A stretch of 64,000 nucleotides of DNA. Origin: Amoebophrya sp. A120. Taxonomy: Eukaryota; Protista; Dinoflagellata. Position numbers and translations under genes: made by a program. The notes under the pieces are model-generated. The model did no database searches, was not told the DNA's origin, and saw only the letters and a list, made by a program, of their open reading frames with translations. Where the stretch lies: contig CAJINV010000012.1 of the NCBI GenBank assembly GCA_905178155.1, forward strand, positions 1,554,492 through 1,618,491, given 5' to 3'. The stretch's first letter is position 1, and the number at the start of each line of letters is the position of its first letter. This document shows positions 1 to 45,900 of this stretch, piece after piece.

Positions 1-28
1 ACCAGGGGCAAGAGTCGCGCCTTTTTCC

Positions 29-4838: not shown

Positions 4839-7800
4839 ATGTCATCTTTGTCTCTTGACTACACCACGGACCGCAACCTTGCCACAGGTGAGGTCTTTCG
4901 AATTTCTTACCCAAAAACTTCTGCAGCACCTCCAAATTTTGCCTCACAGAGAACTACACAGAAGTCCGCTCCTTTGTCTACTCAACGATATGCAGATCGT
5001 GGTCCGGAGACCGACGGGGCGTTCGAAGCGGAGACGAGTACTTTGAATGATAAAAAGCATAAAATGCGAATGGTTGGGTTATTTGCTGTAATGGCACCTA
5101 GGTACAGTTTTTTCTCTCCTTTTTTATCGATGCATTAATTGAAAAAAAAACAAAAGCACAGCACTTCGACAAGGACAGCAACTTCTCATCGACACCGGAT
5201 CTCGCTCCCTCTCGCTCGATGTTTGTGTGCGTTGTTGAGTGTGCGTGAAGATCATAATTGCGATCCATCGGTACTTGACTATTGACCTATATCTCACTTG
5301 TATATTTCAATCGCCTCGCTCGTACATGATTTCGACTCGTCCGTTCTTGCATTTTGATTTACGGTTCGTCTACGTCGCCTACTCTCATGTATACCTCGCT
5401 CGCACTTGGATATTTGTCGTTTACATATTCTAAGACCTATCGTAAATTCGTACTCTCTCGTAGCTCGTACGGGTCGTAGCGTATCGTCATTGCTCGATCG
5501 GGTCTTCGTTTTTTGCCTTCGGTCATCTTCGGTCTCTACGATCTAACTTTCTTGATCCCGGTTTGTGTGCGTGTTGTGGTTTTGCTTTCTTCCTCCGACC
5601 TTTTTCCTTCCAACACGTTAAAGCGGTGAGTGCATGGATGGTGGAGCCGGCGCCTGTAACCGCCATGTACACTGGGATCACCGTTTTAAGCGAGCACCAA
5701 AGTTTTTCCTGCCACTTAGGGCTACTTTTCCCAAAGCAGCGTGGTTTCGAATTCTTTGGACGTTACAGGCAGAAGTGTTGTCCCCTCCTTCATCTCTCCG
5801 TTGCGTTGTTACTTCATGTTCTTCCGTCTCTGCATCTAAGATCTAGAACCAACCAAACTCAACAAGGCCCAGATCGTGGTCCGGAGACCGACGGGGCGTT
5901 CGAAGCGGAGAGTAATAAAGACCTCCACGAGCAAGAGCAGTTGCGAGACCCTGTATTACACATATGCTCGTCCGAGGACGAGAACCAGAAGTACAATCTG
6001 CGCACCAGCCGGACAAATCTCCTAGCTCGGGTTTATGTCCGAATAAAAACCCGGTTGCAACTTGTCGGAAGGAAGCTGAACTCGCTGAAAAAAACCCTGC
6101 GAGAGAAGTTCTACCTGACCTTCCTGCCGATAGACTACCCGCACTCGGTCGGGGAGGAGTACTTGGAATTTCAGGTTTACGACTCCCTGCAGGGCTTATG
6201 CAGCTACCTACGCGGGGTCTTGTGCACCAAGGCGTTGCTGGAAGGCGCGGGCGTTGGAGGCGAAAAGGGTGGTGGTTCCAACAAGCAAACCACCGCCCTC
6301 GCCGCGACGCTGATGTGGGTGGCGCGGGATATGGTGGGCATGGTCACGTCCGTGATCTTCGGCTCCCGGTTTTCTGCGTCGTTCTCCGCGTTCATCAAGG
6401 ATATCATTTGTAAAAACGTCCCCACCCCAGAGTTGCAATGCAAATCTGCATGCTGAGCATGTTTCTCATGCGGAGACCCATGAGAAGCAGTTTCTAGTCG
6501 CGTTTTGGGATTCGTGATGCTAGAAGCAGCATGATATGCTAGATCTGTGATGCTGCTGAGCAAGCTAAACTAACAGGATTACACTACGAGGCCAAACTTG
6601 TCATGCGCAACAGCAACAGCTGACAGATTTGTCTAGCAGACTTCCCAGCTTGAGTCTGGTGTGGGGACGTTTTTACTCAGGATAAAGGAGTGGAGGTTCT
6701 TCGCGGATGTTGCGAACGACGTAGGGCTATCAAATGCAAAAATGTCTAGGTCTCGAAGAATGCAAGATTTGTCGTGCATATTTCTCATGACTCATACTAG
6801 TCTGTGATGTATGCCCTAGCATTACAGATTTTTAGAACCCTTCCTGATGCACCTTCCGCATGGGAAATGGCCCGTCCGTGTAGCACAAATTGTACCCCTC
6901 TTGCTGGTCATGCAATACAAATTTTTTTAGAGTCCAAAAACAGCATGATAAGTTGCAATCTTCCAGAGGACCCAGACACTTTTGCAGTTGATAGGGGCAG
7001 TTTCTGGACATGCTGTCCCCAATCGCGCAGAGCCTCTCCGACACGAGCACACTGTGGGTCCCGCTCCCAGTTGTGTTTTCGCTGCAACGAGTCGTGCAGG
7101 TTTTACTTGGTGCCTCGGAGAGCAGTACTAGTTCACTCCCCGGGGTGGACCACGACGACGAAGGTCGCAGCAGTTTTTTCCGTCTGCATTGGGTTGACAC
7201 GGAAGTGTATGGATTGCAAAAGTGTCTGGGTCTGGAAGGATGTAACTTGTCATGCTGGTCTTGCATTCCTGTGAAATCTGTACTATTGCGTGACCAACAA
7301 AAGTTGTAGCCTCTCATGTCATTACAAAAACGCAGTTTCTCATGCGGACCTCGGATGGGAAAGCGTTCTGCAAACTTGTCATGCTTTTCTGCATAAGGAA
7401 GTGTTTTCCTATTGCACATTTTAGCATTACAAGTTTCCAGACCCAGACATTTTTGCATTTGATAAAGTGAGTCTGTATTTGCTCCTGCTCACGCTGTCGG
7501 CCATTTGCAAGTCCACCTGCGGTGTCGCGGCCGGAGCCGCAAAACTGTGCACCACGTACCACTTTTCAACGTCGCGGCCGCCCTTTTCACCCTCATCGAG
7601 GGTTGTAGAAGAGGAAAACAGTACAACTGGTGCTGTCGTGCATGAGCAACAACTTAACGCACCCTCCGGGTGGTCGTCGGTAAAATCCGCTTCCAAACAT
7701 CCAAGAGCGGTAACCACCGACCCGGGCGACATCGCGACTAAGGAAGGTACGCAAGAGACCGCGGTGACTTTATTGGGAGGAAAAGTCCCGCCTCCTCCCC

Positions 7801-9973: not shown

Positions 9974-10715
9974 GTATGAGTACTAAAGTAAGTATGTAAT
10001 CGTCCACCTAGCTGCAACATTCGGATGAAGCATAGTCAACATAGAGGAGAAGTTGTAGTGCAGTAGGTAGTACAAATAAAAGAGCAAAAATTTCTACGCT
10101 GTTCATCTTGAACATAATTTCTCCGGACGAAAACAACTCCGGCTGTGAGGGGACAAATCAGGGTGCACAGTAAAGAATACACGTGGGCCGCCGGCAACGC
10201 CACGAAGCAGGAAAATTATCTGCACATCAAAAGGAAGACACACAGACACAGGCACGTGAAAGAGCGAGAAATGCTCCACTTACAACACCTTTTCCTTTGT
10301 TGCTTGTTTTTTCTTCCTCTGGCGGTTCCTTCGGATGGGGGATCTTTTTACTGCCACGTGTCAAGCAAGAGATCCAGATTTTTGTCTGCGGCTGAGGTTG
10401 ATGTAGACTGGGTTCCGCTATCCTTTTTCAAAATTATGTACGAGCAGATCTTTCCTCTACTTATCATATCATCTGCAAGTTTCGTGTTCTTGGGGTCCGA
10501 CCCTGACAAAAAGAAAAACCAAGCGCGATCGCACACGACTGATTTCCGGAGACGATAATCTAAAATTGGTGTTTAAGATTTTCAAAGATGTGATAAAGCG
10601 GAATGCTTCTCCTTGCAAAGTTACAAGATAAAAAATAACTTTGCAAAAGTATTTAACTATTCGACGTCTTGCGCCACCAGTGGAGTGGTCCGCATTAGCT
10701 TGATCTTTCAATTTC

Positions 10716-13700
10716 ATGTTTTGCAGCAGTCCCAGCAGCCTTGCTACTTTTCATCTGCTTGCTTTACTGAAGCGCTTGCTTTTCCTTGCAGCAGCATTAT
10801 CATCAACCGAGCTTTACGAAGATTACGATACTCACCCCTACGTAGCATTCGGATTGAGTATTACGACCACTAGGTTGCAAGTACGCAGCAGTGGCCGTCC
10901 ATCCACGACAACAACTGGGGCACGACTTACAGCAAGTAGTTGCAGTGACAATCGCGATCAGACCGTGCCTGTTTCAGCGTCGGGCAGAACAAGCGTTCCC
11001 TTGTGTAGTAACGCTGCAGCAGGTGGTGGACAAGGACAAAGCACAAGTAGACAATTTCTACTCGCAGGAGGACCCGCCTCGCAAGTAGAAGAACCACGAC
11101 GTGTAGCAGCGGTTAAGAAGAATCCTGCTCCTGCTGCACCAAGCGGACTACTTTCGCCGCCTACTTTTTCCTGCTCTTTTTCTTTCGACGGAGTTAGTAA
11201 TATCCTCGGTGCTCCTTCTTGTCGCTGCGACCTGGCTTGCGGGAACCTTGGCGTGAACACAACTAATAACATGACGGTAGCTGCGCCGGAGCATGAAGAC
11301 GTAGTTCCGAAAACGACACCAGGTGCGTAGTTCCGAAAACGACACCAGGTGCGTAGTTCCGAAAACGACACAAGGCCGTGAGAGGCCTTGGCCTTCTTGC
11401 ACCAGGACGCATCTGTTATTATTCAGGGGACCCTTGCGGGGTTGGTTTCCGGTGAGGGATAGTCCAACGCATCGGCAGGTGGTTGCCCAGGGCTGCTGCC
11501 CGCTTCCTCAGGTCAGCCTAGTGGCTGGAAGACCCGCTGTCTGGGTGCTTACAACTAGGCTTCTCGCCTTCTAGCTGTCGGAGTAGGTTCCGCGCCGGGT
11601 GCGCCTTGCGGTAGATGCGGTTGACGCGGATTTTCCCGTGCGGGAGGTGGTTTGCCAGCTCGGCTTGCCTGGGTTGATATCGGAAGATGGTACTACTTCT
11701 ACGGGAGGAGACGCGTGGTTTCTCGGCCTGCAGGATTTCTTTTCCTCCCTGGTGTCGGCGGACGGGTCTTGGCTGTAGAGTCGGTGGCCTGGGGTGTGCA
11801 CTCTAACAGCTTCGACTGGCTCGCTGGGGCGCAATACTAGTTGAGTTCACCGCGCTCACAAGCGGTGAGAAGTTAGTCGCGTTGCTTTTCCAACTACGTT
11901 CCGTAGACTGACGCAGGCACGCAGGGCGCGCGCTTGGCCCAGTGAAGCGCCTCGACGACTATGTTGACGGGCGGCCTTCGAGGTTGTCCCCCTTCTCTGT
12001 CTCTCGTTTACTTTTCGGCCGCTCGGGGACCGTGTGAGGCTTCGATGCCACTGTAGGGGGCTTGGTCAGTCTCCGTTTGGTCTAGTCACGACTGCGCGTC
12101 GCTTTTTCCTTTCTCTCGCGGTTTGCCGCCTCCCTTGTCTTCGTAGAAGGAGGGATGAGGTTTACAGTTTGCAGGCCCGCTGCGCCGCCCTCGTCGATCA
12201 TGGTTAGGCTGCTGTCTCGCTGCCCCGGATACAGCCTCACCCGGACTGCCAAGCACTATGATATCCTGGGTAGTTGCGTTTGCGCTCTGCTGGTTGCAGT
12301 GCATTCTCCACGGGATGGCTTGCACGCCGGTGCATTCTTCGGCTGCTGGGGCCCGTTCTGCATGAGCGACCTGCGCTAGCTGTCTGCTCCTGGCGGGAGC
12401 CGTAACAGTTTCGCCTTGCTGGTGTTCGGGGTTGAAGCGCATGCTCGGTGCCCGCCGCTCATCATCTCATTTTCGAGGTGGTGCTTCGGGGTAGATCATT
12501 TTCGAGGAGTGACTGGAGGGAGTATTCCCCCGTGACTGTTTGTATATGGGCTGGCAGATCCCTAGAAGCTAATGCCTGTAGTTGTTGGTCTTCCGCCCCT
12601 TTGAGTGGGGTCGTTGGAAGGAGCCAACGCAGACGCTGTCTGCCGTTTGCGTATTTGGATTTCGCTGTGAAGGATGCACTTCTTTTCCCCCTCCCTCCCA
12701 CACAAGTGGCCGCTCACGTCGTGCCGGTTCGCCCGGACAGACGTGTTGGTGATGGAGTGGGCCGTTCCCCGCTACGGAAGCTAGGTCCGGCCTGCTTCGC
12801 CCAGCCCCTTCAGGCTCGTTCCAACGGGCCGCTTGGGCGGTGTTGGCTCTGTCTGGATAACACTCGGAAGGAACGCAGCGAAAATGACGGTAGCTGCGCC
12901 GGAGCAACAAGACGTCGTTCCGAAAACGACACCAGGTGCGGAGTTATTAGTGACGGATGCACCCCGGTGCATCGTTTTCGAGTAAGTGACGGCAAGTGCG
13001 CTCGCACATCTGAAAGGGCTGGCAGATCCCTGGTAAGCAAATGCAAGGGGTACGACTGGACCCGCTCTCCATGCGGGGGTCGTGCCAACAATTTTTCTCT
13101 CAGCTGGACCCAGTTAAGAGTGACTGGGGGCTGTGGTTTGCCGAGGTGGTCGCAGTGTTTGCGCCTCGATGACATGACTGTGGGGTGCATGATGGTAGGA
13201 TGCCAGAATAGGTTTTTGCGTCTCGATGGCATGACTTCGGTTTGCCGAGATGAAAGTGGCGCGAGTTTTTCGCCTCTCGATGACATGACTGTTGCGGACC
13301 CAGCGGGCGGGGTGAGTTTTGCCTTTCGTTTGGGTGCATGGCTGTGTCTGCCTCTTTCTGGGCAGGGCTGGGGCTTTCTTGATCTCAGAGGGGCTGTTGC
13401 CGGGTCTCATGGCGATGCCGCGATTTAGGCCGGCTTGTGGCCGCTGGCGGTCAAATTTTGGTTTGGGATATTTCGGCGGCTTTTCTCTCGATGGCACGGC
13501 TTTGGGGTGCTATAATAGTTGTGACGTTTGATATCCGGCTAACTTCCGCTACTCATTCTGGTATTGGTTTGGCTTCGCGATGCTTGCACGGTTAGAGTAT
13601 TCTTGGGTACTCACTCGAGTCAGGTAGCTGGTGATGGGGAAAGGAGTTCGAGTGTTTGGGGCCATTTTCGCGGATGTTTTGATTTGGTGTCCGAATTTAG

Positions 13701-16700
13701 GGGGGTTTTGAGGCTGTGCGTTGTAACGCAGAGGGGTTTTCAGTTGGTCGCTTCCCTATTTCGCGGGCATTTGTGTTGAGGAAGTAGCCGCGGGGCTGTT
13801 TTTCCCCAGGATATGGCTGTGGCATACCGAGGCAGTCAGGCCTCGCCGGCATGTTTGTGGATCGCCAGGGGCGGGCCGTCGGTTAGTTTCGGGCTTGTTG
13901 ATGAAGGGCGGGTTCTTGTGGAATATATTCCCTAGGGTATTGTTCGTTGGCCTTACACCTCTCGCTTGGCTCTGGGCACTGGCGGTTCAAACCCGTTCAT
14001 CCTATGACCTCGTGGGGGCTGTTGGTCAGTAACATGCCTAGTTCCAGGGCCAGGCGAGCAGTCAGGTGTAAGGTCAAAATCATGCACGGAGGTGGACCTT
14101 TTGCCCGCTCCTACTTCTTAAGGTGATCGCCATGGAACTTTCACAGCACCGGGCGGCAGCGAGGTAGTCTCGGGGGTAGTTCGGTCTCGGGTGTCCAAGG
14201 CAGCCTCCTCTTGGTTGTGGCTGGATGGGGTTTTTCGGCTCTTTGTTTTTGCGATGGGAAGTAGGTTTTCAGCTGAATCGCATCGGTTCTGCTCAGTTGC
14301 TCCAGGGCGGCTCTCTGTCCACTTGGAGTGAATGCCTGCGCACTCTTTTCGAGCAACAAGACGTAGTTCCGAAAACGACACCAGCTGCGGAGTTATTTTT
14401 GACATATCCACCCCGGTAGAACATTTTCGTGGAGTGACTGGAGGGAGTTTCCCCCCCTTCCGTTCTTGTATATGGGCTGGCAGATCCCTAGAAGCTAATG
14501 CCTGGAGTTTGTTGGTCTTCCGCCCCTCTGAGTGGGGTCGGGGAAGGAGCCAACGCGGACGTAGTCCGCAAGATTCGCTGGATAGTTTGCTTTGTGATGA
14601 ATTCACTTCGTTCTCGCGTTCTAATGAATGGTAGCTCATGTGCTCAGAGTGCACCGCAGTGCCATTCCGCCACTGAGGGCGCTTCCCAGCGGGGAAGGGT
14701 GTTTTAGGATGTTTGGATCTAATGGATGGTAGCTCATGTGCTCAGAGTGCACCGTAGTGCCATTCCGCCACTGAGGGCGCGTCCCAGCGGGGACGGGTGA
14801 TTTAGGATGGTTGTGCTCTAATGGATGGTAGCTCATGTGCTCAGAGTGCACCGTAGTGCCATTCCGCCACTGAGGGCGCTTCCCAGCGGGGAAGGTGGAT
14901 TCCGGATTGTTTTGCGGTTTTTGGACTAGTTGTAGTGGCGCTGGAGCAGATCGAGATGCGAGCAAGATGCTTATTGCTATTCCCTATTTTCGAGCCCTTG
15001 TAAATGTGGGCCCTTCTCTGTTTTCGCCTCTCATTCGAGCTGGATACTTCCGTACGGGCTCTGGCAAGATTCTCAAACTCGGGGTCCTAGATGGGCTGGC
15101 TGGAGATTGCTTTTGTTCGCGTGTCCAAGGTTTATAGAGTTGTGCCGGAGAGCCTTATGGTGCTGGATCAGGGTGCTTGGCGATGGCCTTGCGCGGGTTG
15201 GTCTTGCTGACGGATGGTTTGTTTCGGAGGGTTGGTTTCGGATGCGCGTATAGCTCGCATCCCGTTGGGGGCGCGGATCAATTGTCTGCTCTGTCCTGCC
15301 TGTTGGCCGTTCCAATTTTAGGCGGGGGCCGAGGTCTTTCTACACATTGCCCACGCAAGGACTCTTCCTGGAGGCGGACACGTCTTTCAGCGTGTCGTAG
15401 GACTAAGTACTCACTGCTTCGCTTTGTTGATGTTGCGGTCTGGCGCGCCTAGTACCGCGTTGAAACCTCCCTGACCTGAGGCACTTCTGTTTTCGGGAGG
15501 CTAGGCGCCTCGCAGCGCTGGCACTACACTTATCTCGGGGGCTGCCTTTTCTTTTTCGGATTCGCTTTGCCGCTTCATCTGCACCAGGGGAGCTCCGCTC
15601 TGTCCTCGGTCTCGCCTGGCTTTGGGAACAGGGGTCGTTTGGCACTGGCGGTACCCAATCCGTTACCCTTGCGAACTTGTTCCCAGGCTGGGGCTGGTGG
15701 TTCGGTGTCTCCTTCGTTTGCCCTCTGTTCCCATTGCGGGGCGAGGCCGGGGCTTTGTCTCTTGGATGCTTGCCCGCGCCAAAATATGCCTGTGGCGCGT
15801 GCGTTGCTATTGTGGGAAGGCCCAGCTGGGCCGGGGTCGAGCAACGAGCCGTAGCAACAAGACGTAGTTCCGAAAACGACACCAGCTGCGGAGTTATTAG
15901 TAGTAGCCTCCAAGAACGATAAGCAAGACGCTGCTGTACAAGTGGGCAGTGCACCGGGAACGGCAGGACCAGGAGTGGCGCCGGTTGAAAACAAAGGCGT
16001 GAACAACAAAATGCGGAGCCCAGCGCAGCATAAAGCTATCTACTGCATCCGGCACGGGACCAGCTGGCACAATGTCGCGTTTGTGAACAATCACTTCTCC
16101 AAAGATGTTTTTTTCTCGCCGAGACTTCACGACAGTCCTCTGATGAAGCAAGGCCACTTATCAGAATGAAAAATGCCCCCACCCCCGAACTTGAAAGCAT
16201 TTGTATTGCAAACCTTTCCAAATGAAACATTCGCCCTCTTGCACCTATCAGCATCACAGGTTTCCAACCGTGAATAGCGAAAATTTGTATTGCAAAAGAC
16301 CCCAGCAAGAGCGGCGCTTGTCATGCAAGCGATGCGATACACGCCTAGACTCCGCATCAGAAAGATTCATACTCGTTTCATGCATGACAAAAAGTTTTCA
16401 TTTGGAAACTCCGCATCACAAATTTTTGCAATTTGAGGGGTGGGGGGCACTTTTCACTGTAATACCACTTAGAAGCGCAGGAGTTCGGGTTGAAAAGTGA
16501 CTTTGCCAAGAACGTGAAGGACAAACAGAAGATTGATTTGGTGCTGGTGTCTCCCCTCTCCCGGGCCATCCAAACCCTGTCAAACATCTGGAAGGACCAG
16601 ATTCTGGAATTTTTCCCGGAAAATTTTCCAGCGGACAAGTGGGGCGTTGCGGATGCGGAAGACGAAGAGATTTGGGCCTGGACCTCAGATATCAAGTGCA

Positions 16701-31273: not shown

Positions 31274-32460
31274 AGTAAGTTGTACTTGCAGCTCTTGGAC
31301 TGGATGGATAGGAAGAGCTGAACTCATGACATGCGTTTTTATTTCGGCAGCATATTGTTTGAAAATGATAATGAATGTGAATTTTATTCCCCAGCAGCAC
31401 AAAGGACCAGCTGGCAGAACAAAAGCAAAACTTTATTCGTTGTGCTGATGCGAGTGAACTCTTGTTCCGTTCACCTTTTCTTCGACTTGCACATACTAGA
31501 CCTTCGAACTAACAATCAAGAATGACGAAATGGCCTATGTCTGTGTCGACACCATACGATGAGGATGATGGTGACTAGGACACTGCTTTGAGTGGATGTG
31601 AAAGAGACCTGCGTTCAGAGGATGTGGTCTGTCGCTCGTGCATTTACAAATACTAGAGCGGTACTATTGTGAAAAACAAGAGTAAAAGCTGTAGTTGCGT
31701 ATATAGAAAATCATAATCTTTTAGGCTACAAAGGGGGGGAGCGTGGGCCAGCATTTTTCGCAAATACTGCCAATGAATCAGAGCGAGGAGTGCGGTGAGC
31801 GATTTCTTCATTCTTAGTAAAAGATTCACAGGATAATTGTACTTAATTCTGAATGGACTTCTACGTTGTAGAAGCTGTCAACTAGTAACGTCGCAAGTGT
31901 AGTCCGTGTTGTAGTGTGGGAGGACAAGTAGGTAAAGGTTCAGGTAGGAGTGCTCTGCACTCCTACATTATTTCGGCCGTGTCGTCCTAGCATTATTTCG
32001 GCCGTTTTAGGTGCATGGGAGTCCTACACTATTTTTTTAAGACTGTCCTTGTCCTACACTCAGGGATCCTACTTATACTCACGGCTCGAGACCTTAGACC
32101 CAGCCTCTCCTGCGCTGGCTCCGGCGCGCGTGTTGTCGCACACGCGCTGCGTGACAGGGCGATGCGGTGGGCCGGGGGCTGGCGCGCCGTTCCGTTGCAT
32201 GTCGAACACGCGCTGCGTGACACGGCGAGGCGGTCGCTGGCCGGGGATGGGGGCGACGTTCCGTTGCATATCTTGGATTCTAGATTTAAATAAAAACAAC
32301 CTATTCCGGGGGGGAGGTTGTTTTTATGTGTGGAGAAATTTACAATCACGGCCACAGTGCAAGATCCTGAATTTCGTCGCACATAAAAACAACCTATGCC
32401 CGGGCATAGGTTGATCTTTTGCAAATCTAGAATCCAGGATATGGGATCGAACGTCGGGCG

Positions 32461-33115
32461 AGGAGAGGTCGATTTTATGGCCGCGGAATTTTCGCGAAAA
32501 CCGACTCAACCTGTTGGAAGCAGAGGTTGATTTTACCGTCACGAAATTTCGCAGCCATAAAATCGACCTCTTGGAAGCATAGGTTGATTTTATCGTCGCG
32601 AAATTTCGTGGCCATAAAATCGACCTCTTGGAAGCAGAGGTTGATTTTATCGTCGTGAAATTTCGCGCCCATAAAATCGACCTCTTGGAAGCAGAGGTTG
32701 ATTTTATCGTCGCGAAATTTCGCGCCCATAAAATCGACCTCTTGGAAGCAGAGGTTGATTTTATCGTCGCGAAATTTCGCGCCCATAAAATCGACCTCTT
32801 GGAAGCAGAGGTTGATTTTATCGTCGCGAAATTTCGCGCCCATAAAATCGACCTCTTGGAAGCAGAGGTTGATTTTATCGTCGCGAAATTTTGCACCCAT
32901 AAAATCGACCTCTTGGAAGAAAAGGTTGACTTTATCGTCGCGAAATTTCCGGAGCCATCGAATCGACCTCCTGGAAGCAGAGGTTGATTTGATTGCTCCG
33001 AAATTTTCGCAGGCACAGAGTCAACCTTTTGGAAGCAGAGGTTGATTTTATGGTCGCGAAATTTCCGGAGGCATAGAATCGACCTCCTGGAAGCAGAGGC
33101 TGACTCTATGGCCAC
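32461..33115. repeat. 57-bp tandem satellite (~11 units), each unit largely palindromic
   Basis: gaggttgattttat-cgtcgcgaaatttcgcgccc-ataaaatcgacctc-ttggaagca; 19-aa periodic ORFs in the track. Confidence 0.92.
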
Positions 33116-34403
33116 GAAGTTTTATTTTGTACAGCCATTGGCTGGAGAAGACGCGGCCCAAAATGCGCATGCTTTGCCAATTTTAGTTCAGGCCCTATGC
33201 CAGCTTAAGGAAGCGCAATGGACGAGACCGGGATTTCCGCAAAGAAAGCAGGACTGCCGCTTATTTCAGTATAGAGAGTAGTCCACGTTGTAGTGTGGGA
33301 GGACAAGTAGGTAAAGGTTCAGGTAGGAGTGCTCTATGGCGAACGCAGAGACTTTTTTTCAAGAAACTTTTTTTTTTTCGCCCATGTCCTCGGCCTGTGC
33401 ATGATAGGCCTTTCAACTTTTTGTAACGGGTCTACGAAGGGAGTAGCAAGGCCTGCCACGGCTCATACGAAGCCAATCGCGTAAGCACTTGCGAAGACGC
33501 TTCAGCAGCAGCAGGTGCTGTGGGCTTTCGGTGTGCCGCTAGTCCTGGGCCCGTGCCCCTTTCACTCCCGCACACCAGCGCCCGTCTGAATCGGGCTTGA
33601 TGCTACCGGGGCACGCGCCTTCTTGCGCAGCACACGCTGTGCGGAGGCCAGCTTCTGTGTTTCACCGAAGGGGCTGACAAGTGCGCCGCCTGAGGTCGCC
33701 ATCCCCCTTCGATCATATTCTAACGACCCCTGGGGAGGGCAAAAGACGGCCCAGATAGAGTTCTCGAGCCCGGGAAGGCTTCTACACAGTTTCCGGAAGC
33801 AACGTCGCGGAAAAGGGCGCTGCCGGCCCTTGGCCAATCTGCCAGAAACCAGCGCGACGCCGGGGACCGTGCGCATAGACGCACCAACCTGTATGAACCG
33901 CGCCTCCCGCGCAAATTTGCCTCATAGCTCGAAGGTGTCCGACCTCCTCTTGAGGAGACACGCCGAAAACAACAAGAGGGAGGCCCCTCGGAGGGGGGTT
34001 GGGGGGGTGGGTTGCGCGACCCCCGCCCCTGCCTCCATCATACCATGCGGGCTAGCAAAAAAAGGGATCCCGAAGGGGGGGGGTTACCCCCCCCCCCTCC
34101 GGGGCCCCTCGAGCCGGCATTTTTGCGCTGCCCAAAAAGATTTCCCGTTGTCTCCGATGCCACCAGGCCGGGCAAAAGACCTTGGGGCTTAGGGCAATGT
34201 GGGGAAGCCCGGCGGAAGAAAGCCCACTGCACGCGGGGCTCTGCGAGGTTTTTCTCGCTCTGACCTAGAGTGCCTCCACGCCGCTAAACCTCGGCGGGGC
34301 CCCGCAGCCCAGCAGCAGAGAAGATTCAAAGAGGACAAGTAGGTAAAGGTTCAGGTAGGAGTGCTCTGCACTCCAGATCAGGTAGGAGTGCTCTTTGAAA
34401 TTG

Positions 34404-34498
34404 GATCAGAACAGGGGATCAGAACAGGGGATCAAAACAGGGGACCAGAACAGGGGACCAGAACAGGGCATCAGAACAGGGGACCCGAACAGGGGATC
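34404..34498. repeat. ~13-bp minisatellite (A(T/C)CAGAACAGGGG) x ~7
   Basis: Read directly. Confidence 0.85.
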
Positions 34499-35916
34499 CG
34501 GAACCGGCTTGGGAAACGGACAGCAAAATAGCACATCCGTGTCGCGGTTTCAGATTTGGTTCTTTGGCGGCTTGCTGGCCAGCCGCGGAGCCTGGCCTGG
34601 CTGATTCCGGCCCGGGGGCCTTCAGCTCGGGCTTCTCGTGTTTTGGTAATTGCCAGCAATCTGCCATAGCAATAGCGGCTAAGTAATCTGGTAGGGATCA
34701 TGTTGCTGAAACATGTGCGCCACTGCCGCCGCGCTTTACATACGGGCGCTGCGGCAGCTCGCCGCCGACCGCATTCGGCGGCTTTTTCCAGAAGGCGTTC
34801 GCGGGCTTGCATCGGGCTCGATGCTCTTGCATGTGAGTGAAGCGAAGCTGCGTGAAGAGCTTTTCATTGCATAGGACAGGGCACTAAGAGGATGTTTTGT
34901 GTGTGATGATCAGAGCTGACACATGTTGGCGCCTAGGCCTCACCCAAGTGCTCTGCTCTTCGTCCAAGAGCCGAAGACGAGCACAAACTCCGCCGGGCAT
35001 TCTCGTGGCTCGGCGCTAATCCTCCGCTTCGCCCACCGAGCAATCTTTCTTTTTGTCTCGGCAAGTTTGCCCTCTCAAAAAAATTTCAAAAATAAAAAAA
35101 TCCAATCATTTTTGAACGTTTTTGAACACTGGTCATGCGCTAGACCCCTGCCCAACTTGACCTGTTGTAGTGTGGGAGGACAAGTAGGTAAAGGTTCAGG
35201 TAGGAGTGCTCCTCTGCACTCACTGTATTGTCATACAACCTCTCGTCTCGTAGCTGGAACAAGAAGTAGTCCTGAATAGCAAATAAGAAGACAAAGGCCG
35301 ACGATGATTTTGACCCTCCGGTCCTTGCTGAAGCGCCCGGCGGTTTTAGTGGTAAGTATTTACTTTTCTTATTTGAAATACGACTGCGACTCTACGTCCA
35401 CTCGACTCTACCTTGTTCCGCAATAAAATACGTTTTCCCTGCGGATAGTACATTTGTTTGTTTGATGATGTGTGTCATCTTGTTCTACTCTTTCCGTCGA
35501 TTCGAAAGTCTCTCACTCAATGACCGCTCGCACACAGGTCGCAGCCGAGCTATTTATCCTGTTTCTCTGGGCGGTGCTGGTCAGTTATCCTCCAGAAAAG
35601 TAAGGATGGCGTAGTGGTGCCATGATTGGAAAGTAATTGCCTATGCAGTTTTTTTTTTAGCATGGCAAAGAGTTGTTGGCTGTTCAGCATGTTGACAATT
35701 TTTTTGGCCGCCTCTGGTCCCGTCGGTCTCCACGACTTAGTGTGACAGGAAAATGATGCGTCTCATCTTTTGGTCGTCGTTTATTTGCAAACGTTTTGAT
35801 GTTTACAGGAAACGAAAAGAAACAAGAACTGAAATTGAAAAAATCAATTTTTTTCAATCATCTTGTGTGACTGTACTTCTACTTTTCTGTGTGATATTAG
35901 TTTCGCGTTTCTCGAC

Positions 35917-36917: not shown

Positions 36918-36925
36918 TATGCGGC

Positions 36926-37134: not shown

Positions 37135-37199
37135 GGGACGCGCTCTGCTCCAGCTCCAGTTTCGTGACCGTGCTGAAACAAGAAAAGCTGGTGTGGGCC

Positions 37200-38502
37200 G
37201 TGCAACGTTTGACTTTTTGTTGTAAGTACTTACGCACTTATGTAATACTAGTAACCACCTCCCGATAACCAAAAAATCACTAGGAGCTCCACAACCTCGA
37301 CAAACACCACACAAATTCAAAACCCCCGGGGGACCCTTGTTGGCGCGAACCGGCGCGCAAGCCCAAGCAGGCACTCGGGCGCCTTTTTCTTGTGGCGTTC
37401 TTACTTCCCTCACCCTCCCTGGGCGCGGCAGGCTAGGGGCGCTCCTAGTGCGGCCGGCCATGAGCTTTCCAGGTTTGCAGGCTTCTAGCGCCAGCCGCGC
37501 GCGCCATTTGGGGGCGACAAGGCCGACAAGGTTGCCTACTACCCTGCGTCGCAGGCGGCTACCGGTAGGTGGCTTGCTAATTGTGTGCGCGGAGGGGCTT
37601 GGTTTGTCCTAAGGAAAGGTCTGCCACTGGCTGGTCGGCCACTGACTGGTGGTCCGCCATGGCAGGTCTTCCACAGCTGGCCCGCTGCCTGTGGTTGGTC
37701 CGCCGTGGTTGGTCCGTCATGGCAGGTCTGCCGCAGCTGGTCCGCTGTGGCTGGTCCGCCGTGGCTTGTCTGCCATCGCCATGATAGGTCTGCCACACCT
37801 GCTGGCCCGCCCGCCGTGCCCGGTCTGCCACAGTTGGCCCGCCGTGGAAGGTCGGCAACGGCCGCTGTTCCGCCGTGGCTGGTCTGCCACATCTGCTGGG
37901 CTGCCGCTGCTGGTCCGCCGGGCGTGGCAGGTTGTCCGCAGCTGCTGATCCGCCGTGGCTGGTCTGCCATACATTGCTGGCCCCCCGTGCCCGTGGCAGG
38001 TCTGGTCGATGCCACCGTTGGCCCGCCATGGCACTTTTGCCGCAGCTGCTGTTCCGCCGTGGCTGGTCCGCCCTGGAAGGTCTTCAATCCCGCGCGCTTT
38101 TCTTTGGGAGTTGGCCCCGAGCCCTTTCCGAGCTGGGTCGCTTCCGTTGTGTTTGCCTTGGGAAATGCGCGGAAGCCTTCCCCCGATTTTCGCAAAGCCC
38201 TTCGCCACATGCACATGGAGGCTGGGCTGCCGCGGCTGGTCTGCCACTGCTGGGCGGCCCGCCGTGGCAAGTCTGCCGCTGCTGGTCCACCGGGCGTGGC
38301 AAGTTGCCCACCGCTGCTGATCCGCCGTGGCTGGTCTGCTATTGCTGGCCCGCCGTGTTTGTGGCAGATCTGGCGCCACCGCTGGTCCGCCATGGCACTT
38401 CTGCTGCAGCTGCTGGTCCGCCCTGGAAGGTTTGCCAAGGCTGCTGGCCTGCAGGTGCAACGTTTGACTTTTTGTTGTAAGTACTTACGCTCTTATGTAA
38501 TA
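37200..38502. repeat. Long direct-repeat insertion locus D: 48-bp repeat (37200-37247, 38455-38502; 1 mismatch) flanking a 1207-bp insert
   Basis: gtgcaacgtttgactttttgttgtaagtacttacgc(a/t)cttatgtaata. Confidence 0.88.
37615..38454. repeat. GC-rich degenerate minisatellite (GCTGGTCCGCCGTGGC(A/T)GGTCTGCC modules)
   Basis: Recurrent short modules; ORFs in all frames. Confidence 0.85.
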
Positions 38503-39324: not shown

Positions 39325-39648
39325 TATCAGAATGAAAAATCTCCCCTCCCCATATCAAAACGAAGTTGCTAATGCTGGATTTGCGTACACAAATCAGATT
39401 TGTCTTCCTGGCGAGAACTGCAGGCCCATACTAAGCCTGAGTAGACAGGTTTTATTGGCCTAGGCGCTTTGCATGATAGACGTCTACGCTGTAGGTGCAA
39501 CAGCATGACAAACCGCCTGTAGAATGCGGCGGACCTTGTGGGGTTGCCTTCATGCAACACAGAGACACTTTGTGGTCACAAATCAGCAACGCAAATTTTC
39601 GAAAACGTGCCTTGTCAATATGGAGAGGGGGGATCTTTCTTTTTGATA
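39325..39648. mobile_element. TIR introner, family E2
   Basis: TSD tgctg/tgctg; host gene not resolved. Confidence 0.88.
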
Positions 39649-40671
39649 TGCTGCTGGTCTTCCTCTGCCTCGGTTCGCGGTTGTGACAGAACAAAACCTG
39701 GGATAAGTATTAGTTATTACTTTCATAAAGTGGTCGTGTAAAATAAAATTAAATAAAGGCCCCATAGATGTTGGCGGAGCAACACAACAATATTAAATGA
39801 ACACTGTTGCACTTCTTGCAGCTGGTGCAAGAGCAAGAGCCACCTCCTCGTCCCCTTTCTTGCTACTCCTGCAGTGCCGTAGTTAATCCTCTGAAAAATG
39901 CATTCCTGTCGGCATCTGTGCAAAAGGTAGCGTCTCGGATTCCCGAAGCGCTTGAAAGTACGCACGGCTGGCACTTCAATGTTGCGGTTGTTTTCGGACC
40001 TCCGGGACCTTGGCTTCAAGAAATCCCCGGCCCTGGTGGTCCGTAGCTTCGAGTGCTTAGACGCCAATTTCTCAGCGGGCATGGTACTCACGCCGTCGCC
40101 CGACCGGGTGCGAGGGTGTTTCTGCAGGGGTTGTTGCAGGCCAATTTGCAATGTTTTTTGTGGCGCGTCTCGGACGGCTGACCGCAAGACACCTCAACCG
40201 GCCTGAGTCTAGCGCTGTGGCCGGCATTGCTGGCCTTCGCGGTTAGGCGCCAGAATTAGAGCGCATCACGCTGGGCTGTGTTTTACCCTGGCCCCGGTTT
40301 TTCTCTTACGCTTGGTTTCAGTGTGTTTTGCCCCAGTGCCTCTCTGACATTCTCCGCCCGGCCCTCTTTCTGGGGGCGGCGCTTTCATTCTGCTTGGAGC
40401 CTCACGCGCCGTTTGAGTGCGGCGAGCCCCGATGCGTTGACGGCCAGCCAAAGGTCTTGGATTTGCATCCGAGCAACCATGAGGGCAAGTGCCGGCCTCC
40501 CGGGAAATAGCCTCTGCGGGTAGTCCTTGGGGGTTCAAGAATGGGGTATCCGACATTTTGCTCCGATGCATTTTTCTCCATCGTGATTCGCTTCAGAAAA
40601 AAACGCATCGGAGCAGTTTTTGTCGAGGTTCTTGTTAGATGTATTACACAACATTGGATCTCGTCCAATCT

Positions 40672-40871
40672 GCTCCGATGGAGACAGCGATGCGTTTTTC
40701 GGATCGAAGCCCTGGGCCTTGAGTGCCTTTGGACCGCTAACGAACCTGAAGAGGTCCATCAGGGCAACTCACGCGAGCCTGGGGGCATTGCTCTCAGCTT
40801 TGGTGACGAAATCGAGGAAAACAATTCCCAGATCCCTGATCCGGAAAACGCATCCGTGTCTCCATCCGAGC
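40672..40871. repeat. Imperfect ~34-bp inverted repeat (gctccgatggagacagcgatgcgtttttcggatc / gatccggaaaacgcatccgtgtctccatccgagc) among related short repeats
   Basis: Read directly. Confidence 0.6.
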
Positions 40872-42261
40872 AAAATGCATCACCAGCAAACTTGCTCCGC
40901 TGCGGTTTTCTTTTACGGAGGCACGGGTGTGCTTTTCGGATCAGGGATTCGAGCAAGCAAAGTAGCGAACTTGCTCTAGTGCCTTCTTTACTGCTTCGCT
41001 CTTTGTAAGACGGCTTGGTCTCTCTCCAGATGCATCAGAGCAACCTCGTGTCTGATTACAATGCGCGCGCCAATGTCTTCAGGGCGCGTAGCTTTTTCGC
41101 ACTGTGTGGCCCTGATGAAGAGCAAGAGCCACCTCCTCGTCCCCTTTCTTGCTACTCCTGTATTGCGCAGCAACCAGTCTCGGACTAGAGCTGTTGCTAG
41201 CATGCTCCTCAGATCAATGAGATCCATGAACTAGGTCACAGAACACCAGTAGGTGTAGGATGTAAATACAGGGGTCACACTAGTAGGATCACAGGGATCA
41301 CACAGACAGGTGCGATCACACTAGTAGTCGCTTGAACCACGGAGGAGAGCTTGCTGCATTTGCTGGGTTTTGGAAAATGTCTGCTCAGGACCCTACCGGA
41401 AATTTTCGCGCGATGCTGACGAACCCTTTTTATGGTTCTAGCAGTTTCTGGGTAGTGGTTTCATTCCGCTTTGAAGCGAAGGACTCAGACTTATTTTCAG
41501 ACTTTGGGAGCATTAGAGGCTATATTTCTCCTTTTCTGATTTGTCTTGTGCGCTGGGGCGTATTTCCTCGACCGAGTAGTCTGGTAGCCGTATCTGCAGA
41601 ATTTCGGTTCGCGAGTGCTAGCGTCAGCATGCGAATATTTTGAAAAAAGGGCACCAGAGGCAGTTGCTTGAGGATTCTCGATGTTGCGCATGACAACCAG
41701 GGCTAGAAGAGATTTCGAGTTTACATATTGATATTGCACGCAACCACTGGCAGTGGATATAGCCGCCTAAATTAAAACCGTTCTGACGATGGGAACATCG
41801 TTCGTGGTGAAGCCACCGCAGGGGAGTGGGAGTCTAAAAAGTAGAAAACGTCTCTGCCGCCCCAGAGATGGGAGCGCGGTTGACATTTACTAGCCTAAGA
41901 ATAGGGAGCGATCATGGCCTCAGTGCTATTGGTTTCGCTGTTTTCCCTATTAGCCTTCACGCCTTGCTGTATTCAGATTACAGCCGATGTCGAGAAGTGC
42001 GATGGTAGCACTTCGGCCAAGTGGTATTCTTAGCCTGGTAAAAGCACAGCCGTAAGCTTAAGCAAGAAAAGTTTCTGACGTTCATCTGAGAGCAAGAGCC
42101 ACCTCCTCGTCCCCTTTCTTGCTACCCTCTAATAGAATTGATAGCCGGAAAACTTCCCCGGAGACCTTCGGGGGACAGAAGCGCGATAATTTGGCAAACG
42201 AAGAGCCTCTGAAAAGTATTTTTCGAAAAGTGCATCTGAGGCGCATCTGAGAGCTAGGTAG

Positions 42262-42966
42262 CGTTTGAAAAGTGAAAAATCAGTGATTTTTCACTTTTTC
42301 AAAATTTTCTGAAGTCGACGGAGCGTGCAACTCTTTCCAGGTTGACAAGTTTCGAAAAGTGGAAATCATTTAGAAGTGAAAAAGCACTGACTTTATTCTA
42401 CTTATCAATGATTTTCATTCTGGAAGAGTGAACGCGGCCTCGACTCGCGAAAATTTTCAAAAAGTGAAAAATCACTGATTTTTCACTTTTTGAAAAGTTT
42501 CACACACTCTGAGAAACGCGGCTACGACTCCAGAGTGAAAATTTTCAAAAAGTGAAAAATCAGTGATTTTCACTTTTGAAAAATTTTCATTTTGGAGTTC
42601 AAGCCGCGCTCACCCTTCTCAGAGTGAAAATTTTCAAAAAGTGAAAAATCACTGATTTTTCACTACTCTTCTCGAAGGTACCCGTGGTCTCGAAGGCCTC
42701 CGTGGCCACGGGTACCTTCGAGAAAAGTAGTGAAAAATCAGTGACTTTTCACTTTTGAAAAATTTTCACTTTTGAGGCGAAGCCGCGTTTCTCAGAGTGT
42801 ATGAAAATTTTCAAAAAGTGAAAAATCACTGATTTTCCACTTTTGAAAAAATTTCACTTTGGGGCCTCGACTCCAGAAAATTTTCAAAAAGTGAAAAATC
42901 ACTGACTTTTCACTTTTGAAAGATTCCCACTCTGGAGACGAAGTCGCGTTCACTCTTCCCAGAGTG
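42262..42966. repeat. AT-rich foldback-like element of palindromic units (TTTTCAAAAAGTGAAAAATCA(C/G)TGATTTTTCACTTTTGAAAA) around a central hairpin at ~42670-42724
   Basis: ttctcgaaggtacccgtgg...ccacgggtaccttcgagaa; mirrored ggaagagtgaacgcg / cgcgttcactcttcc. Confidence 0.85.
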
Positions 42967-45900
42967 AAGCAAGGCCGTCGGGCCGGTGGGCAAGTTTGTG
43001 AAAGCGCCTCACGCTGCTCTTCCGCGATTTCTTAACTACTTATGAGCGAGCTGTAGGAGGCCTTGAGTTAATTTGGGCAGCGGCTCCTGTTCATGCGAGC
43101 AAGCTGCAGACTTGCAGTGTCCCTCCGATCCTCGCACTGTTGGAAAGGCTTTCTGAGTCTCAGACGAACGAAAAAGCGCGCGCAAACTATCGAATTTACG
43201 CGATTTTTGTCCCTCGAAGGCGTCCGGAGAAATTTTCCGGCGAAAAGGGGGGGGCTTTTGCGAGTCATGCACTGTTGCACTTCTTGCAGCTGGTGCAAGA
43301 GCAAGAGCCACCTCCTCGTCCCCTTTCTTGCTACTCCTGCACAATCCGTTACCAATGCACTGGCGGTACCCAATCCGTTACCCTTGCGAACTTGTTCCCA
43401 TGCTTTGGCTGGGGTTCTTGGTGTCCAATTTGTTCGCCCTCTGTTCCCTTAGCAGGGCGGGGTCGAGGATCCTCCTCCTCAATAATATTTGGTGGCGCTG
43501 TGTAAGTGTATTGTTATTGCATCTTGTGGGGCGATGGCTCTTCGGGATGCTTCCCTCGTGCAGGTGGTGGCTCCGTCTATGACAGCGAGTCTCTATAATG
43601 GGCACGGTGTGCTCTCGTTATCGCGTCGATACAATCGTAGGCGCGCGGATTCTTACCGGCGGTAAGGGGCTCGCGTGCTAGCCTATAATCTGCCCTGGGG
43701 GCTACGATAGCGATATCGTTCGCCACGCGCTTCTCCGGGGTGGCTTTGCTTGTCGCCAGCCATGGTAGGCATTGTTAGGTCGAGTGCCTCTAGTGAGACT
43801 TAGGTGCCCGTGGAGGCGGAAGGGGGCCGCGAAGGGGCGGCTGTTCTTGCTCGGTCTTCTGTTGTTTGGCAGTATCGGGGAGTAAGTAGTGACCTTGTTG
43901 CGGGCTTCTTTGGGTTACTGGTTGGCTTGACTCGCTGGGGACGCACTACCGGGGATGGTCCCCTGCGTGCTCTTTCAGTTTTTGCGCCGCTGCGTCCAGG
44001 TGCAACAGCTTCTACCTTTGGTCCGTTACACGGGGCAGTCCCGCCCCGCCGGTAGGGACGTTCTCGTAGATGTTACTCACGTTTGCTGGCTGGCGCTCGG
44101 ACGCTTTTGGATTTGTGTCACGAAGACCTCTGTAGGCGCCGGGGCGGTTTGTGCCCAGGGCAGCTACGTTTCGAGTGATGCGGGCTTTAAGGCTTTGCTG
44201 TGTTTACTATGGCGGAATTGGTGTCTTCGCTATATTGCCGGTTCCGGATGTAGATGTAGTCGTGATCTTCTTTTCCGCGGTTTCATGGAGCTCGCCTTCC
44301 GTCCGGGCGATGGATTGCTCCGGAGTGGTGGCTCTGGGGCAAGTGGGGCTGGGCTGGCGCTCCTCTCCCCCCATTCAACCACCTGCGGTGGGGTTCTGGG
44401 GGGTCTTGCCTGTTGGCCTGGTGGTGGTGGAGTGGGTCGCTCCCTGCTGCGGGAGCGAGGGTTCGACCCGCTTTACCCAGCCCCAACGGCGCGGTCCAAC
44501 GGGCCGCTCGGGTGGTGGATACCAGATGGAAGGAACGAAACGAAAGACACATCTACCCCGGTAGATTCTTTTCGTGTAGTGACTGGGATTTGGGGTCCCC
44601 CGTTCGCACTGTGTCGGCTGGCAGATCCGTAGAAGCAAATGCCCGTTTGCGTACTCCCCCCCTAGAGTGGGGGGGAGGGATGTAGAGTCATCGATCAGTG
44701 CGTCTGGGGGACGGGAAGTAGGAAGTTTTTGCCCCCCCTCCCTCCCGAGTGGCCGCATACGTCGAGCCGGCTAGTCCGGACAGACGTTTGGTGGTGAGGT
44801 GGGCTGGGCCTTCAGTGGCGGGTACTAGGCCCAGCCCGCTTTACCCAGCCCCAACGGCGCGGTCCCGGGTCGCTCCCTGCTGCGGGAGCGAGGGTTCGAC
44901 CCGCTCGACCCAGCCCCAGGTGCAAGAGCAAGAGCCACCTCCTCGTCCCCTTTCTTGCTACTCCTGCAGCCGGGGTTCCCTATAGCCCCTTTGCCGGGGT
45001 TCCCTATAGGGGAATGGAGGTTCCGGCACAAATGCACGGCATTAGCTATTGGTATTACCTTGCTCGGGCTTGGAGGGCTTGTGCCGTCTTGCCGGTTCGC
45101 TGAAATCGAAAGCGTTTCGTTGCCAGGTTGTGTCCGTTTTGCGCTCTGTTTTACGCCGCGCGGGGACGTCATGCCGGCGCTTTCAACGAGAGCGCTCTCT
45201 TTTCAAGATTTCGGTCTGGGGGACCACGGTGGCACGCTCCATTCTTGATGTCTTTGGGCTGACTGTCAGTTGTTCCAGTTGCGGCTTGCGGCCGTGCCGG
45301 CAGTGGCCTACCTTGCGGGGGGTTGTTAGTTTGTATACCCGGGCCAAGGTCGTAGACCTTTCCGTGTGGATGTTTGGAGCTGGCTTACAGCACGTTGCGC
45401 ACGTATAGAGTGGCGCCCTCCTTCCTGTGCGAGGGTTTTGCTTTTTCGGGAACTCGCTTACACGGCTCCTGCTCGAAGAGCAGGCGCTCCCGCTTCTCGT
45501 TCACGCTGTTTTTGGCTGATAGTGGGCTGCTTGCGCTTTTTTCCGGGGTGGCTATTTTGGGGCCGGAACTAGCGACGTGCAGGTGCTCCTGGTGCGGCGT
45601 TCTCTGTCTTGGTGCTGCCGCTTGGCGTACTTTGCTTGCAGGATTGCTTCGGTCGTTTGCCTGTCTTCCCCTTGGGGGCAAGTGGGGCTGGGGCTGGCGC
45701 GTTTCCCCCCATTCAACCACCGGAGGTGGGGTTCTGGGGGGTCTTGCCCTGGGGGCCAGGTGGTGGTGGAGTGGGCCGGTCCCCGCTACGGAAGCAGGGC
45801 CCGGCCTGCTTCGCCCAGCCCCATCAGGCGTTCTTGCAGCTGGTGCAAGAGCAAGAGCCACCTCCTCGTCCCCTTTCTTGCTACTCCTGCAGTGCCGTAG

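Follow-up and report, generated by a model that had tools for sequence, protein, structure and literature searches.

Five loci in a 64,000-nucleotide stretch of the genome of Amoebophrya sp. A120 (the window; contig CAJINV010000012.1, positions 1,554,492 to 1,618,491) are organized as arrays, in which copies of a short, local host sequence alternate with non-coding inserts of about a kilobase. We tentatively favor the view that these arrays arose by target-primed retro-insertion in trans, by an enzyme of the non-LTR or Penelope type, with the long target duplications rebuilding the site for re-use, and we read them as selfish or accidental genome growth rather than immune memory.

The loci (E, A, C, D, and B) contain 1, 3, 3, 1, and 5 inserts, respectively, and 2, 4, 4, 2, and 6 copies of the repeat (Table 1), confirming the layout of host repeat, insert, and host repeat proposed in an earlier note on this DNA. 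The 13 inserts make up 24% of the window. The narrow size range given in that note also holds, although with the boundaries as redrawn here the limits become 788-1577 bp rather than 768-1577 bp. Every insert (13/13) lies between copies of a duplication that is specific to its locus and about 38-69 bp long, and within the window the anchor motif of each locus is confined to that locus. As the note had described, the copies share a core and have ragged ends, neither boundary of the duplication being fixed. With boundaries placed by hand (±2 bp, so that lengths are approximate), the duplications per insertion were 42 bp at E; 58, 50, and 46 bp at A; 69, 38, and 58 bp at C; 48 bp at D; and 54, 42, 65, 50, and 62 bp at B.

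When the window was simulated 30 times with an order-5 Markov model, no local repeat of >19 bp arose by chance. When the window was scanned for further locus-specific, insert-flanking pairs of at least 19 bp spaced by up to 9 kb, none was found outside the five loci. By inspection, the remaining pairs were repeats of introners or of coding sequence, together with two tandem duplications that hold no insert (a 38-bp unit present 3.6 times, and one of 25 bp), which indicate that duplications of such a kind can form without an insert.

Table 1. Target copies and inserts of the five arrays, in window positions
Feature	Position	Strand	Remarks
Locus E left target copy	4993..5034	+	42 bp, N-terminal coding part of RUS1/UVB_sens_prot gene
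Insert E1	5035..5869	.	835 bp, T-rich on +
Locus E right target copy	5870..5911	+	identical to left copy
Locus A copy 1	11270..11371	+	ends with 26-bp target piece x2.9 (slippage, left junction)
Insert A1	11372..12883	.	1512 bp; end is exact right terminus of shared family
Locus A copy 2	12884..12951	+	
Insert A2	12952..14350	.	1399 bp; start is exact left terminus of shared family
Locus A copy 3	14351..14397	+	identical to copy 4 across overlap
Insert A3	14398..15854	.	1457 bp; left terminus of shared family at +4
Locus A copy 4	15855..15901	+	spanned by contigs from two RNA-like runs
Locus C	31896..35221	.	copies 31896-31963, 33278-33335, 34331-34374, 35163-35221
Insert C1	31964-33277	.	palindromic 57-bp satellite
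Insert C2	33336-34330	.	
Insert C3	34375-35162	.	target echo, 13-bp satellite
Locus D	37200..38502	.	copies 37200-37247, 38455-38502; 1 mismatch between them
Insert D1	37248-38454	.	GC-rich minisatellite
Locus B	39802..45900	.	five inserts, six identical copies
Locus B copies	39802-39882, 41118-41160, 42089-42125, 43270-43341, 44919-44969, 45831-45900		
Insert B3	42126..43269	.	foldback element
Insert B4	43342..44918	.	shared family, with internal terminus fusion
Insert B5	44970..45830	.	shared family; left junction with 17-bp local duplication

Five inserts (A1, A2, A3, B4, and B5) belong to one sequence family, all in the same orientation. B4 contains an internal junction (44545/44546), the two sides of which match, to the exact base, A1 at its right end and A2 at its left end; here the right and left termini of the family are fused head-to-tail with no target DNA between them. 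A3 starts 3 bases off the left terminus, and the ends of B4 and B5 lie about 7 bases apart or less in family coordinates; the left end is common to two members and the right-end region to three. The terminal unit of A1 (about 12478-12883, about 410 bp) has the form A-spacer-B, block A opens A2 and A3, and B4 has the order B, A, and then a partial B, its two B blocks having only 31 identical bases in common. No insert carries both family ends. A3 also contains a 98-bp tandem repeat and has a 111-bp block in common with B4. A terminal inverted repeat was found in one of the 13 inserts, i.e., B3, where it measures 49 bp (76%) and lies near both insert ends. The earlier claim that the inserts have no common termini is therefore overturned. 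Nor are they all truncated copies of one known element, the family being common to 5 of 13 only. Strong A/T skew was present in eight inserts, all of them T-rich on the + strand.

Outside the shared blocks, the insert bodies displayed no mutual homology (two borderline matches, z <4). None of 84 matches to the introner-end motif fell within the arrays, where 20.6 would be expected if they were uniform, in agreement with the failure of the earlier reading to find introners there. The outer 40 bases of the inserts contained no terminal A or T run of >8, the longest (8) being in C2. Among 98 stop-free insert frames of at least 75 amino acids, none carried a reverse transcriptase (RT), endonuclease, recombinase, tyrosine recombinase (YR), or Rep domain, or a restriction-modification gene. 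Pattern scans for the shared family gave no match in metagenome or viral contigs, and those for the 57-bp satellite none in viral contigs. Rfam scans returned no family at gathering score (25 weak hits in one scan, 2 in another) and no ribozyme family, the hammerhead motif included; comparison of the left-end block of the shared family with the hammerhead, HDV-like, and twister motifs, by eye and by folding, did not support a ribozyme either (z-scores −1.1 to 0.4, eight folds). Covariation in the hairpins of the family was not significant, being equalled by 50 of 500 shuffles. No target motif or fold was common to the loci, and an apparent common motif near the right-hand cut failed a randomization test (P ≥0.19). 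The window contained no spliced-leader relic.

Of the 13 left junctions, five (C1, B4, B5, A1, and C3) displayed local re-copying of at least 12 bases, compared with none of the 13 right junctions and a background of 2.2%. The left boundary was also less scattered than the right in all three arrays with several inserts (11 versus 21, 7 versus 24, and 16 versus 28 bp). The left-right asymmetry is weak taken alone (three loci; sign test, p = 0.06). The evidence on orientation comes from four loci. At locus A the order of inserts is compatible with sequential nesting, as 2 of the 6 possible orders would be; substitutions in the copies agree with the nested order, in which the middle insert was placed first, so that there is no one-sided addition at this locus; locus C gives no indication either way. 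The copies there differ by 1-3 bases (copies 3 and 4 excepted), which suggests separate rounds. By contrast, the order at locus B lies outside the 8 of 120 orders permitted by nested insertion, whereas the rotated order (3,4,5,1,2) is nested; all 14 copy pairs compared at this locus were identical.

Inserts break coding sequence at loci E and A. Downstream of locus E is a match to Pfam PF04884 (RUS1/UVB_sens_prot; E 9.7e-24), and deletion in silico of E1 together with one target copy yielded a stop-free stretch of 227 codons. For the upstream RUS1 exon there was no significant match to the relative P0001, so that the restored frame is the sole basis for the empty-site reading at E. A motif downstream of locus A, which we take to resemble histidine phosphatase, was not confirmed by Pfam. 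Runs X3 and X4 are presumed to be RNA; in each, a single contig covers three non-adjacent parts of the stretch, which is what spliced RNA would give. Contigs of these RNA-like runs contain E1, with coverage of 7-12 for the insert versus 13-15.5 for the exon contig, while at locus A coverage of the inserts fell to 1-3 in places versus 31-50 upstream. Introner joints took up the rows listed in the table of joints, with 934 more rows beyond them. Because 114 in-frame canonical splice options exist across E1, the mere existence of one is uninformative. A new transcription start in A3 was considered and dropped, as contig depth was flat and the break at 15619 was a graph branch.

The arrays might conceivably be assembly artefacts, with alternative alleles or repeat contigs chained via the short repeat, or the order at locus B scrambled. 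That the order at B becomes nested on rotation would fit such an error, and no contig among those listed covers an entire array, the public read contigs having been examined at loci E and A. However, insert DNA at these two loci is at single-copy depth and some junctions are crossed by read contigs. In run X1, unique contigs in A1, A2, and A3 had depths of 24.3, 24, and 34.5, compared with 22.8-30.1 for five host contigs, which argues against three alleles splitting one depth. Read contigs end at 5022 and 5882, as expected at k = 31 of two genuine copies of a 42-mer. The right junction of A2 was crossed by 31 bases in X1, and that of A3 was fully crossed in two runs of a second study. We therefore consider an artefact very unlikely. 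The 3′ half of E1 has related copies in X1, whereas about 1.2 kb of the bodies of A1 and A2 has no second copy there at 90% identity, so that a donor is missing. The earlier description of the inserts as foreign is supported only in part.

Under the reading that we favor, target-primed retro-insertion, an enzyme encoded elsewhere and unseen in the window would nick the two strands about 38-69 bases apart and copy into the gap between the nicks an RNA of about 1 kb from a non-coding repeat. Nicking would start, and the copy be primed, at the left junction on the + strand, and one enzyme may serve, in trans, several non-autonomous repeat families that are unrelated to one another. The duplication would restore a cuttable site, so that the same spot could be struck again, yielding the repeat-insert-repeat array. 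Template jumps between RNAs and the target overhang could account for the fused termini in B4 and might have built locus B in its entirety during a single burst. Long, variable duplications are already known for non-LTR elements, and left-only re-copying, the steadier left boundary, the T-rich + strand, and the uniform orientation of the family all point the same way, as do the exact element termini at junctions and the nested order at locus A with its matching substitutions. Counting against it are the missing RT, endonuclease, or recombinase frame, tail, and target motif or fold; the non-nested order at B and the lack of a fixed boundary on either side; the resemblance of B3 to a DNA-type foldback element; the missing donor for A1 and A2; the non-significant hairpin covariation; and the insert-free tandem duplications. 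It does not account for the narrow range of insert sizes.

The arrays might instead be made by host break repair, which seems to us possible but rather unlikely. Nicks 40-70 bases apart would generate a break with long overhangs, to which synthesis-dependent end joining or template switching adds repeat DNA (from excised elements, cDNA, or flaps) before returning to the target; re-use would come from renewed cutting of the duplicated site or from several cycles in one event. Breaks with 46-nt overhangs are indeed reported to give tandem duplications, to be cut a second and a third time, and occasionally to acquire templated inserts (passages of PMC5730883), and the window contains insert-free duplications. 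The mixed cargo, with a terminal-inverted-repeat element (B3) among it, the lack of both tails and a target motif, and the identical copies in non-nested order at B, as from one cycling event, also fit. However, end-joining capture in yeast is biased to pieces of 45-300 bp (excerpts of PMC11372161), unlike the inserts here, the smallest of which is 788 bp, and the one-sided slippage, the single orientation, and the exact element termini at several junctions also count against repair; the differences between copies at locus A suggest separate rounds. The mechanism envisaged in the earlier note, a wide-stagger cut at a re-used site or repeated switching of templates, with repeat fragments of limited size as the filling, survives and lies close to these two leading explanations.

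The shared family could also be a non-autonomous YR retroelement with split direct repeats (VIPER/SIRE, Ngaro, or PAT) or an HUH-type element (Helitron or Replitron) that brings its own ends, the long duplication being added by host repair. Pieces from A1, A2, A3, and B4 match the VIPER layout A1...B1-A2-B2, and variable duplications occur in Replitron-1 and some Chlamydomonas Helitrons (as given in parts of PMC10288648). This appears unlikely, however, as none of the inserts bears both ends, the B blocks of B4 have so little in common, the insert frames lack YR, RT, and Rep domains, and only 5 of 13 inserts would be accounted for. Also unlikely is a reiterating capture specific to this intracellular parasite, in which a nick-pair site is re-duplicated at each round, or within one polymerase cycle, and is loaded with size-selected kilobase pieces, part of them from outside the genome; this would account for insert bodies without a donor copy and, if true, would mean that horizontal transfer is being observed as it happens and has built a quarter of the window. 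The cargo would come from repeat nucleic acid of mixed origin, with an outside source such as the dinoflagellate host within which the parasite grows. We regard as extremely improbable a functional system, CRISPR-like or a trap, that stores samples of mobile DNA for silencing. Its appeal lies in the layout, the narrow size range, and the repeats as cargo, but CRISPR arrays have one conserved repeat with fixed ends, whereas the five repeats here are unrelated and ragged; locus A was filled middle first, two open reading frames are interrupted, and Rfam yielded no family at gathering score. The likeness to CRISPR or a transposon trap drawn previously is thus not upheld.

Long variable target duplications as such are already known. 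Those of R9 in Adineta vaga measure 126 bp and those of Dualen-4b_cRei >50 bp, with a median of 900 bp (extracts of PMC9977147), and all known CRE and R4 elements are stated to make duplications (sections of PMC3636483). As with these non-LTR elements, the inserts lie between long variable duplications of unique target DNA, ascribed to widely spaced nicks. However, ours are non-coding, belong to several unrelated families, remain within 0.8-1.6 kb, lack the RT and endonuclease frame and the poly(A) or simple-repeat 3′ tail, and are stacked up to five per site, at sites without a common motif. Bacterial restriction-modification insertions with long target duplication, in the portions of PMC2853133 available, likewise have duplications of >30 bp (46-47 bp in several cases) that are unique to the site (here, within the window) and an insert without a mobility gene, but are single and gene-bearing, whereas the present ones are eukaryotic, non-coding, and multiple per site. 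In studies of paired nicks and templated insertions (PMC5730883, PMC11724301, PMC11372161), overhangs are duplicated, cutting is repeated, and retroelement cDNA or several fragments are captured, but these are experimental, with mostly short inserts, and the portions of these papers available do not describe kilobase inserts each with its own target copy. Penelope-like elements, including Chlamys, also display truncated copies, partial head-to-tail tandems, and internal tandem repeats (parts of PMC8557442); our inserts differ in having no RT, GIY-YIG, or hammerhead match and no microsatellite target, although Chlamys and Naiad likewise lack a hammerhead ribozyme motif.

The fusion in B4 (one case) is compatible both with a Penelope pseudo-LTR and with split direct repeats. 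We know of no long target duplications as a feature of VIPER/SIRE-type YR retroelements. In the accessible text on that group (PMC6681497, PMC7192593), the VIPER layout resembles the blocks of the shared family and SIRE is an A2-B2 unit of about 185+30+220 bp (PMC6681497), but here there is no complete copy or coding region and the layout exists only across separate inserts. Amoebophrya introners, which insert within and near genes in the same kind of genome, have inverted repeats of 8-20 nt and direct repeats of 3-5 nt (extracts of PMC7789003, PMC12130899); in the supplementary rows seen for one strain (22 of 58), 14 had a duplication, all of 2-5 bp (PMC12130899). The array inserts differ in lacking introner ends and in having target duplications of about 38-69 bp.

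At locus E the genome has been altered within a gene, the RUS1 reading frame being broken by an insert that is present in RNA-like contigs. The anatomy of the arrays lends itself to direct tests of whether long duplications are made by the element or by the host, and of why sites are re-used. Arrays of this type would be overlooked by repeat finders geared to one family and a short duplication. If general, they would give Amoebophrya genomes another route of invasion besides introners, and could explain part of the repeat fraction of these genomes, which is 13-24% and mostly unclassified (according to parts of PMC7789003).

Self-comparison of the window recovered, as an earlier note had described them, five loci (E, A, C, D and B) at which inserts stand between copies of a target sequence that differs from locus to locus, with 2, 4, 4, 2 and 6 target copies, respectively. 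The 13 inserts, numbered from left to right within each locus, measure 788-1577 bp each and sum to 15,252 bp (24% of the window), and each goes with a target duplication of about 38-69 bp, a length taken from the end of the left copy and the start of the right copy with boundaries placed by hand. Local repeats longer than 19 bp arose in none of 30 Markov simulations. When the insert and one copy were removed at E, 227 codons without a stop remained in one of three frames, and at A one frame has a single stop in 112 codons; the repeat is local host DNA, as the earlier note had claimed. Under a log-uniform size null of 150-7000 bp, i.e., one of our own choosing, so narrow a size range has a chance of 1e-8 if all 13 inserts are separate draws, and of 0.005-0.03 when the five loci alone are the independent units.

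Four read runs were mapped onto 4400-16600 (loci E and A), among them X1, which is probably DNA and possibly from the source sample, and X3 and X4, which are RNA-like and come from one sample of a second study. In X1, unique contigs inside A1, A2 and A3 had depths of 24.3, 24 and 34.5, and five host contigs had depths of 22.8-30.1. With bridging defined as at least 31 bases on either side, the right junction of A2 was bridged in X1 (31 bases) and that of A3 in X3 and X4; only 30 bases crossed the right junction of E and the left junction of A1, which were not counted. At locus E the read contigs end at 5022 and resume at 5882, the very points at which a 31-mer graph is broken by two copies of a 42-mer, and no contig among those listed for 4400-16600 spans a whole array. 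At the two loci checked against reads, E and A, the inserts are real. As a rough guide only, summed depth hints that two blocks of the repeat family described below have about 27 and about 70 relatives, and the 3' half of the E insert 2-5. Bins 11726-12132 and 13354-14167 are at single-contig depth, so that these bodies of A1 and A2 show no second copy at 90% identity in X1.

The inserts are non-coding, and a mobile-element domain was found in none of the 98 stop-free frames of at least 75 aa inside them; the few domain matches among these frames were low-complexity, from satellites. As had been claimed, the inserts lack introners (TAT...ATA introns), in that none of 84 introner-end motif matches falls within the arrays. 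The accompanying claim that there are no common termini did not survive: some inserts have defined ends. A1, A2, A3, B4 and B5 have common blocks of a shared family (68-91% identity, single orientation), and inside B4 the right end of the family is joined directly to its left end, between 44545 and 44546. A1 finishes (12883) and A2 begins (12952) in exact alignment with the two sides of this point. A3 starts 3 bases off the left end, and B4 and B5 end near each other, close to the right end. In likeness only, these blocks resemble equally the A1...B1-A2-B2 layout of VIPER and its SIRE unit (part of PMC6681497) and a Penelope-type partial tandem (part of PMC8557442). Alone among the 13 inserts, the foldback element B3 has a terminal inverted repeat of its own; C1, C3, D1 and B1 have satellites or palindromes inside. 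No ribozyme or any other Rfam family reached the gathering score, and hairpins of the left-end block of the shared family showed no significant covariation.

Features of the window beside the arrays and within them
Feature	Position	Strand	Observation
GC-rich palindromic DNA	1-300		24-bp repeat closing with a run of T; possibly the right-hand end of a sixth insert, with its left target copy beyond the window
Intron-free coiled-coil ORF	2141-2878	+	245 aa, made of 21-57 bp repeats; Pfam coiled-coil matches sub-threshold only, Atlas match weak (0.78); either a host gene or an ORF1-like piece of a retroelement would be conceivable
Tandem duplication	4689-4733		25-bp period, 20 identical bases; insert-free; upstream of RUS1 gene
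RUS1-family exon	5870-6400		top match among 9 is an Amoebophrya protein (51% identity)
Introner families	6402-62300		several TAT...ATA families, very high summed depth in X1; two neighbours, at 53752 and 54109, belong to one family
Exon downstream of locus A	15861-16168	+	reached by RNA-like contigs from inside A3; RHG motif resembling that of histidine phosphatases, a likeness that Pfam did not confirm
End region of C3	35079-35126		resembles B3 foldback unit 42450-42494 (79% over 48 bp)
Right end of B4	44835-44918		re-copies 44434-44485, which lies about 400 bases to the left within B4; a template-switch signature
38-bp repeat	53012-53146		perfect unit, 3.6 copies, insert-free, in introner-like sequence; length class of the target duplications

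Of the 13 left junctions, 5 have a short re-copied piece of at least 12 bases, as against none of the 13 right junctions (background 2.2%); the pieces of A1 and C3 lie beyond the 90-base span of the test and were taken from other repeat comparisons. Boundary scatter was smaller on the left in each of the three arrays with several inserts. On the + strand, eight inserts have a strong excess of T and none is A-rich; the inserts have no terminal tails, and no target motif is common to the loci. All orders of inserts in each array were tested against nested, sequential staggered cuts. At A, two of six orders pass, including the assembled one, and the substitutions set copies 1 and 2 apart from copies 3 and 4, which is the grouping that the passing order requires, so that A looks like separate insertion rounds. 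All six orders pass at C. At B, where 8 of 120 orders pass, the assembled order fails even with 12 bases of slack and none of the 14 aligned pairs of target copies shows a difference; this looks like a single burst, a rearrangement at a later time or an incorrect order.

Our best reading, which we hold tentatively, is that a non-LTR or Penelope-type enzyme acting in trans would nick the two strands far apart and then carry out target-primed copying of an RNA template; enzyme, template and strand are all inferred. End-to-end template jumping is known for such enzymes. Long variable duplications are made by R9 and Dualen (part of PMC9977147). Polarity, the single orientation, the exact ends and the kilobase size of the inserts are more in keeping with an RNA template than with passive capture, for which yeast shows a bias to 45-300 bp (part of PMC11372161). 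A serious rival, which we rate as rather unlikely, is that the host repairs paired nicks: overhangs of 46 nt lead to duplications and to repeated cutting (part of PMC5730883), insert-free 38-bp and 25-bp duplications are present in the window, and the cargo is mixed. YR or HUH elements, with duplications made by the host, are improbable. An assembly artefact is very improbable; A1-A3 lie at or near host-contig depth, which argues against alleles chained by the assembler, since alleles would share one depth. Least probable of all is a CRISPR-like function.

The component parts are known: non-LTR elements make long duplications, breaks that are cut again become duplicated repeatedly, and bacteria have insertion with long target duplication (part of PMC2853133). 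Stacked, mixed, size-limited inserts of this kind in Amoebophrya have no description in the full text searched, a scope that leaves out most subscription papers and figure S4 of PMC7789003 and takes in, from PMC12130899, 22 supplement rows out of the 58 for one strain; material beyond it may bear on novelty.

A eukaryotic + strand gene cluster fills the window, with many inverted-repeat introns that start with TAT and end with ATA. Because the TAT motif matches that of Amoebophrya introners (part of PMC7789003) and the RUS1-family exon has its best match in Amoebophrya, the organism is judged Amoebophrya-like. At A, coverage was 1-3 in insert parts, 31-50 upstream and 70-101 downstream, a dip that fits splicing or a split transcript alike. 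The E insert seems to be largely retained in RNA, since its coverage in the RNA-like runs was 7-12 versus 13-15.5 for the exon contig, and from 5464, within the insert, an open frame extends into the conserved domain.
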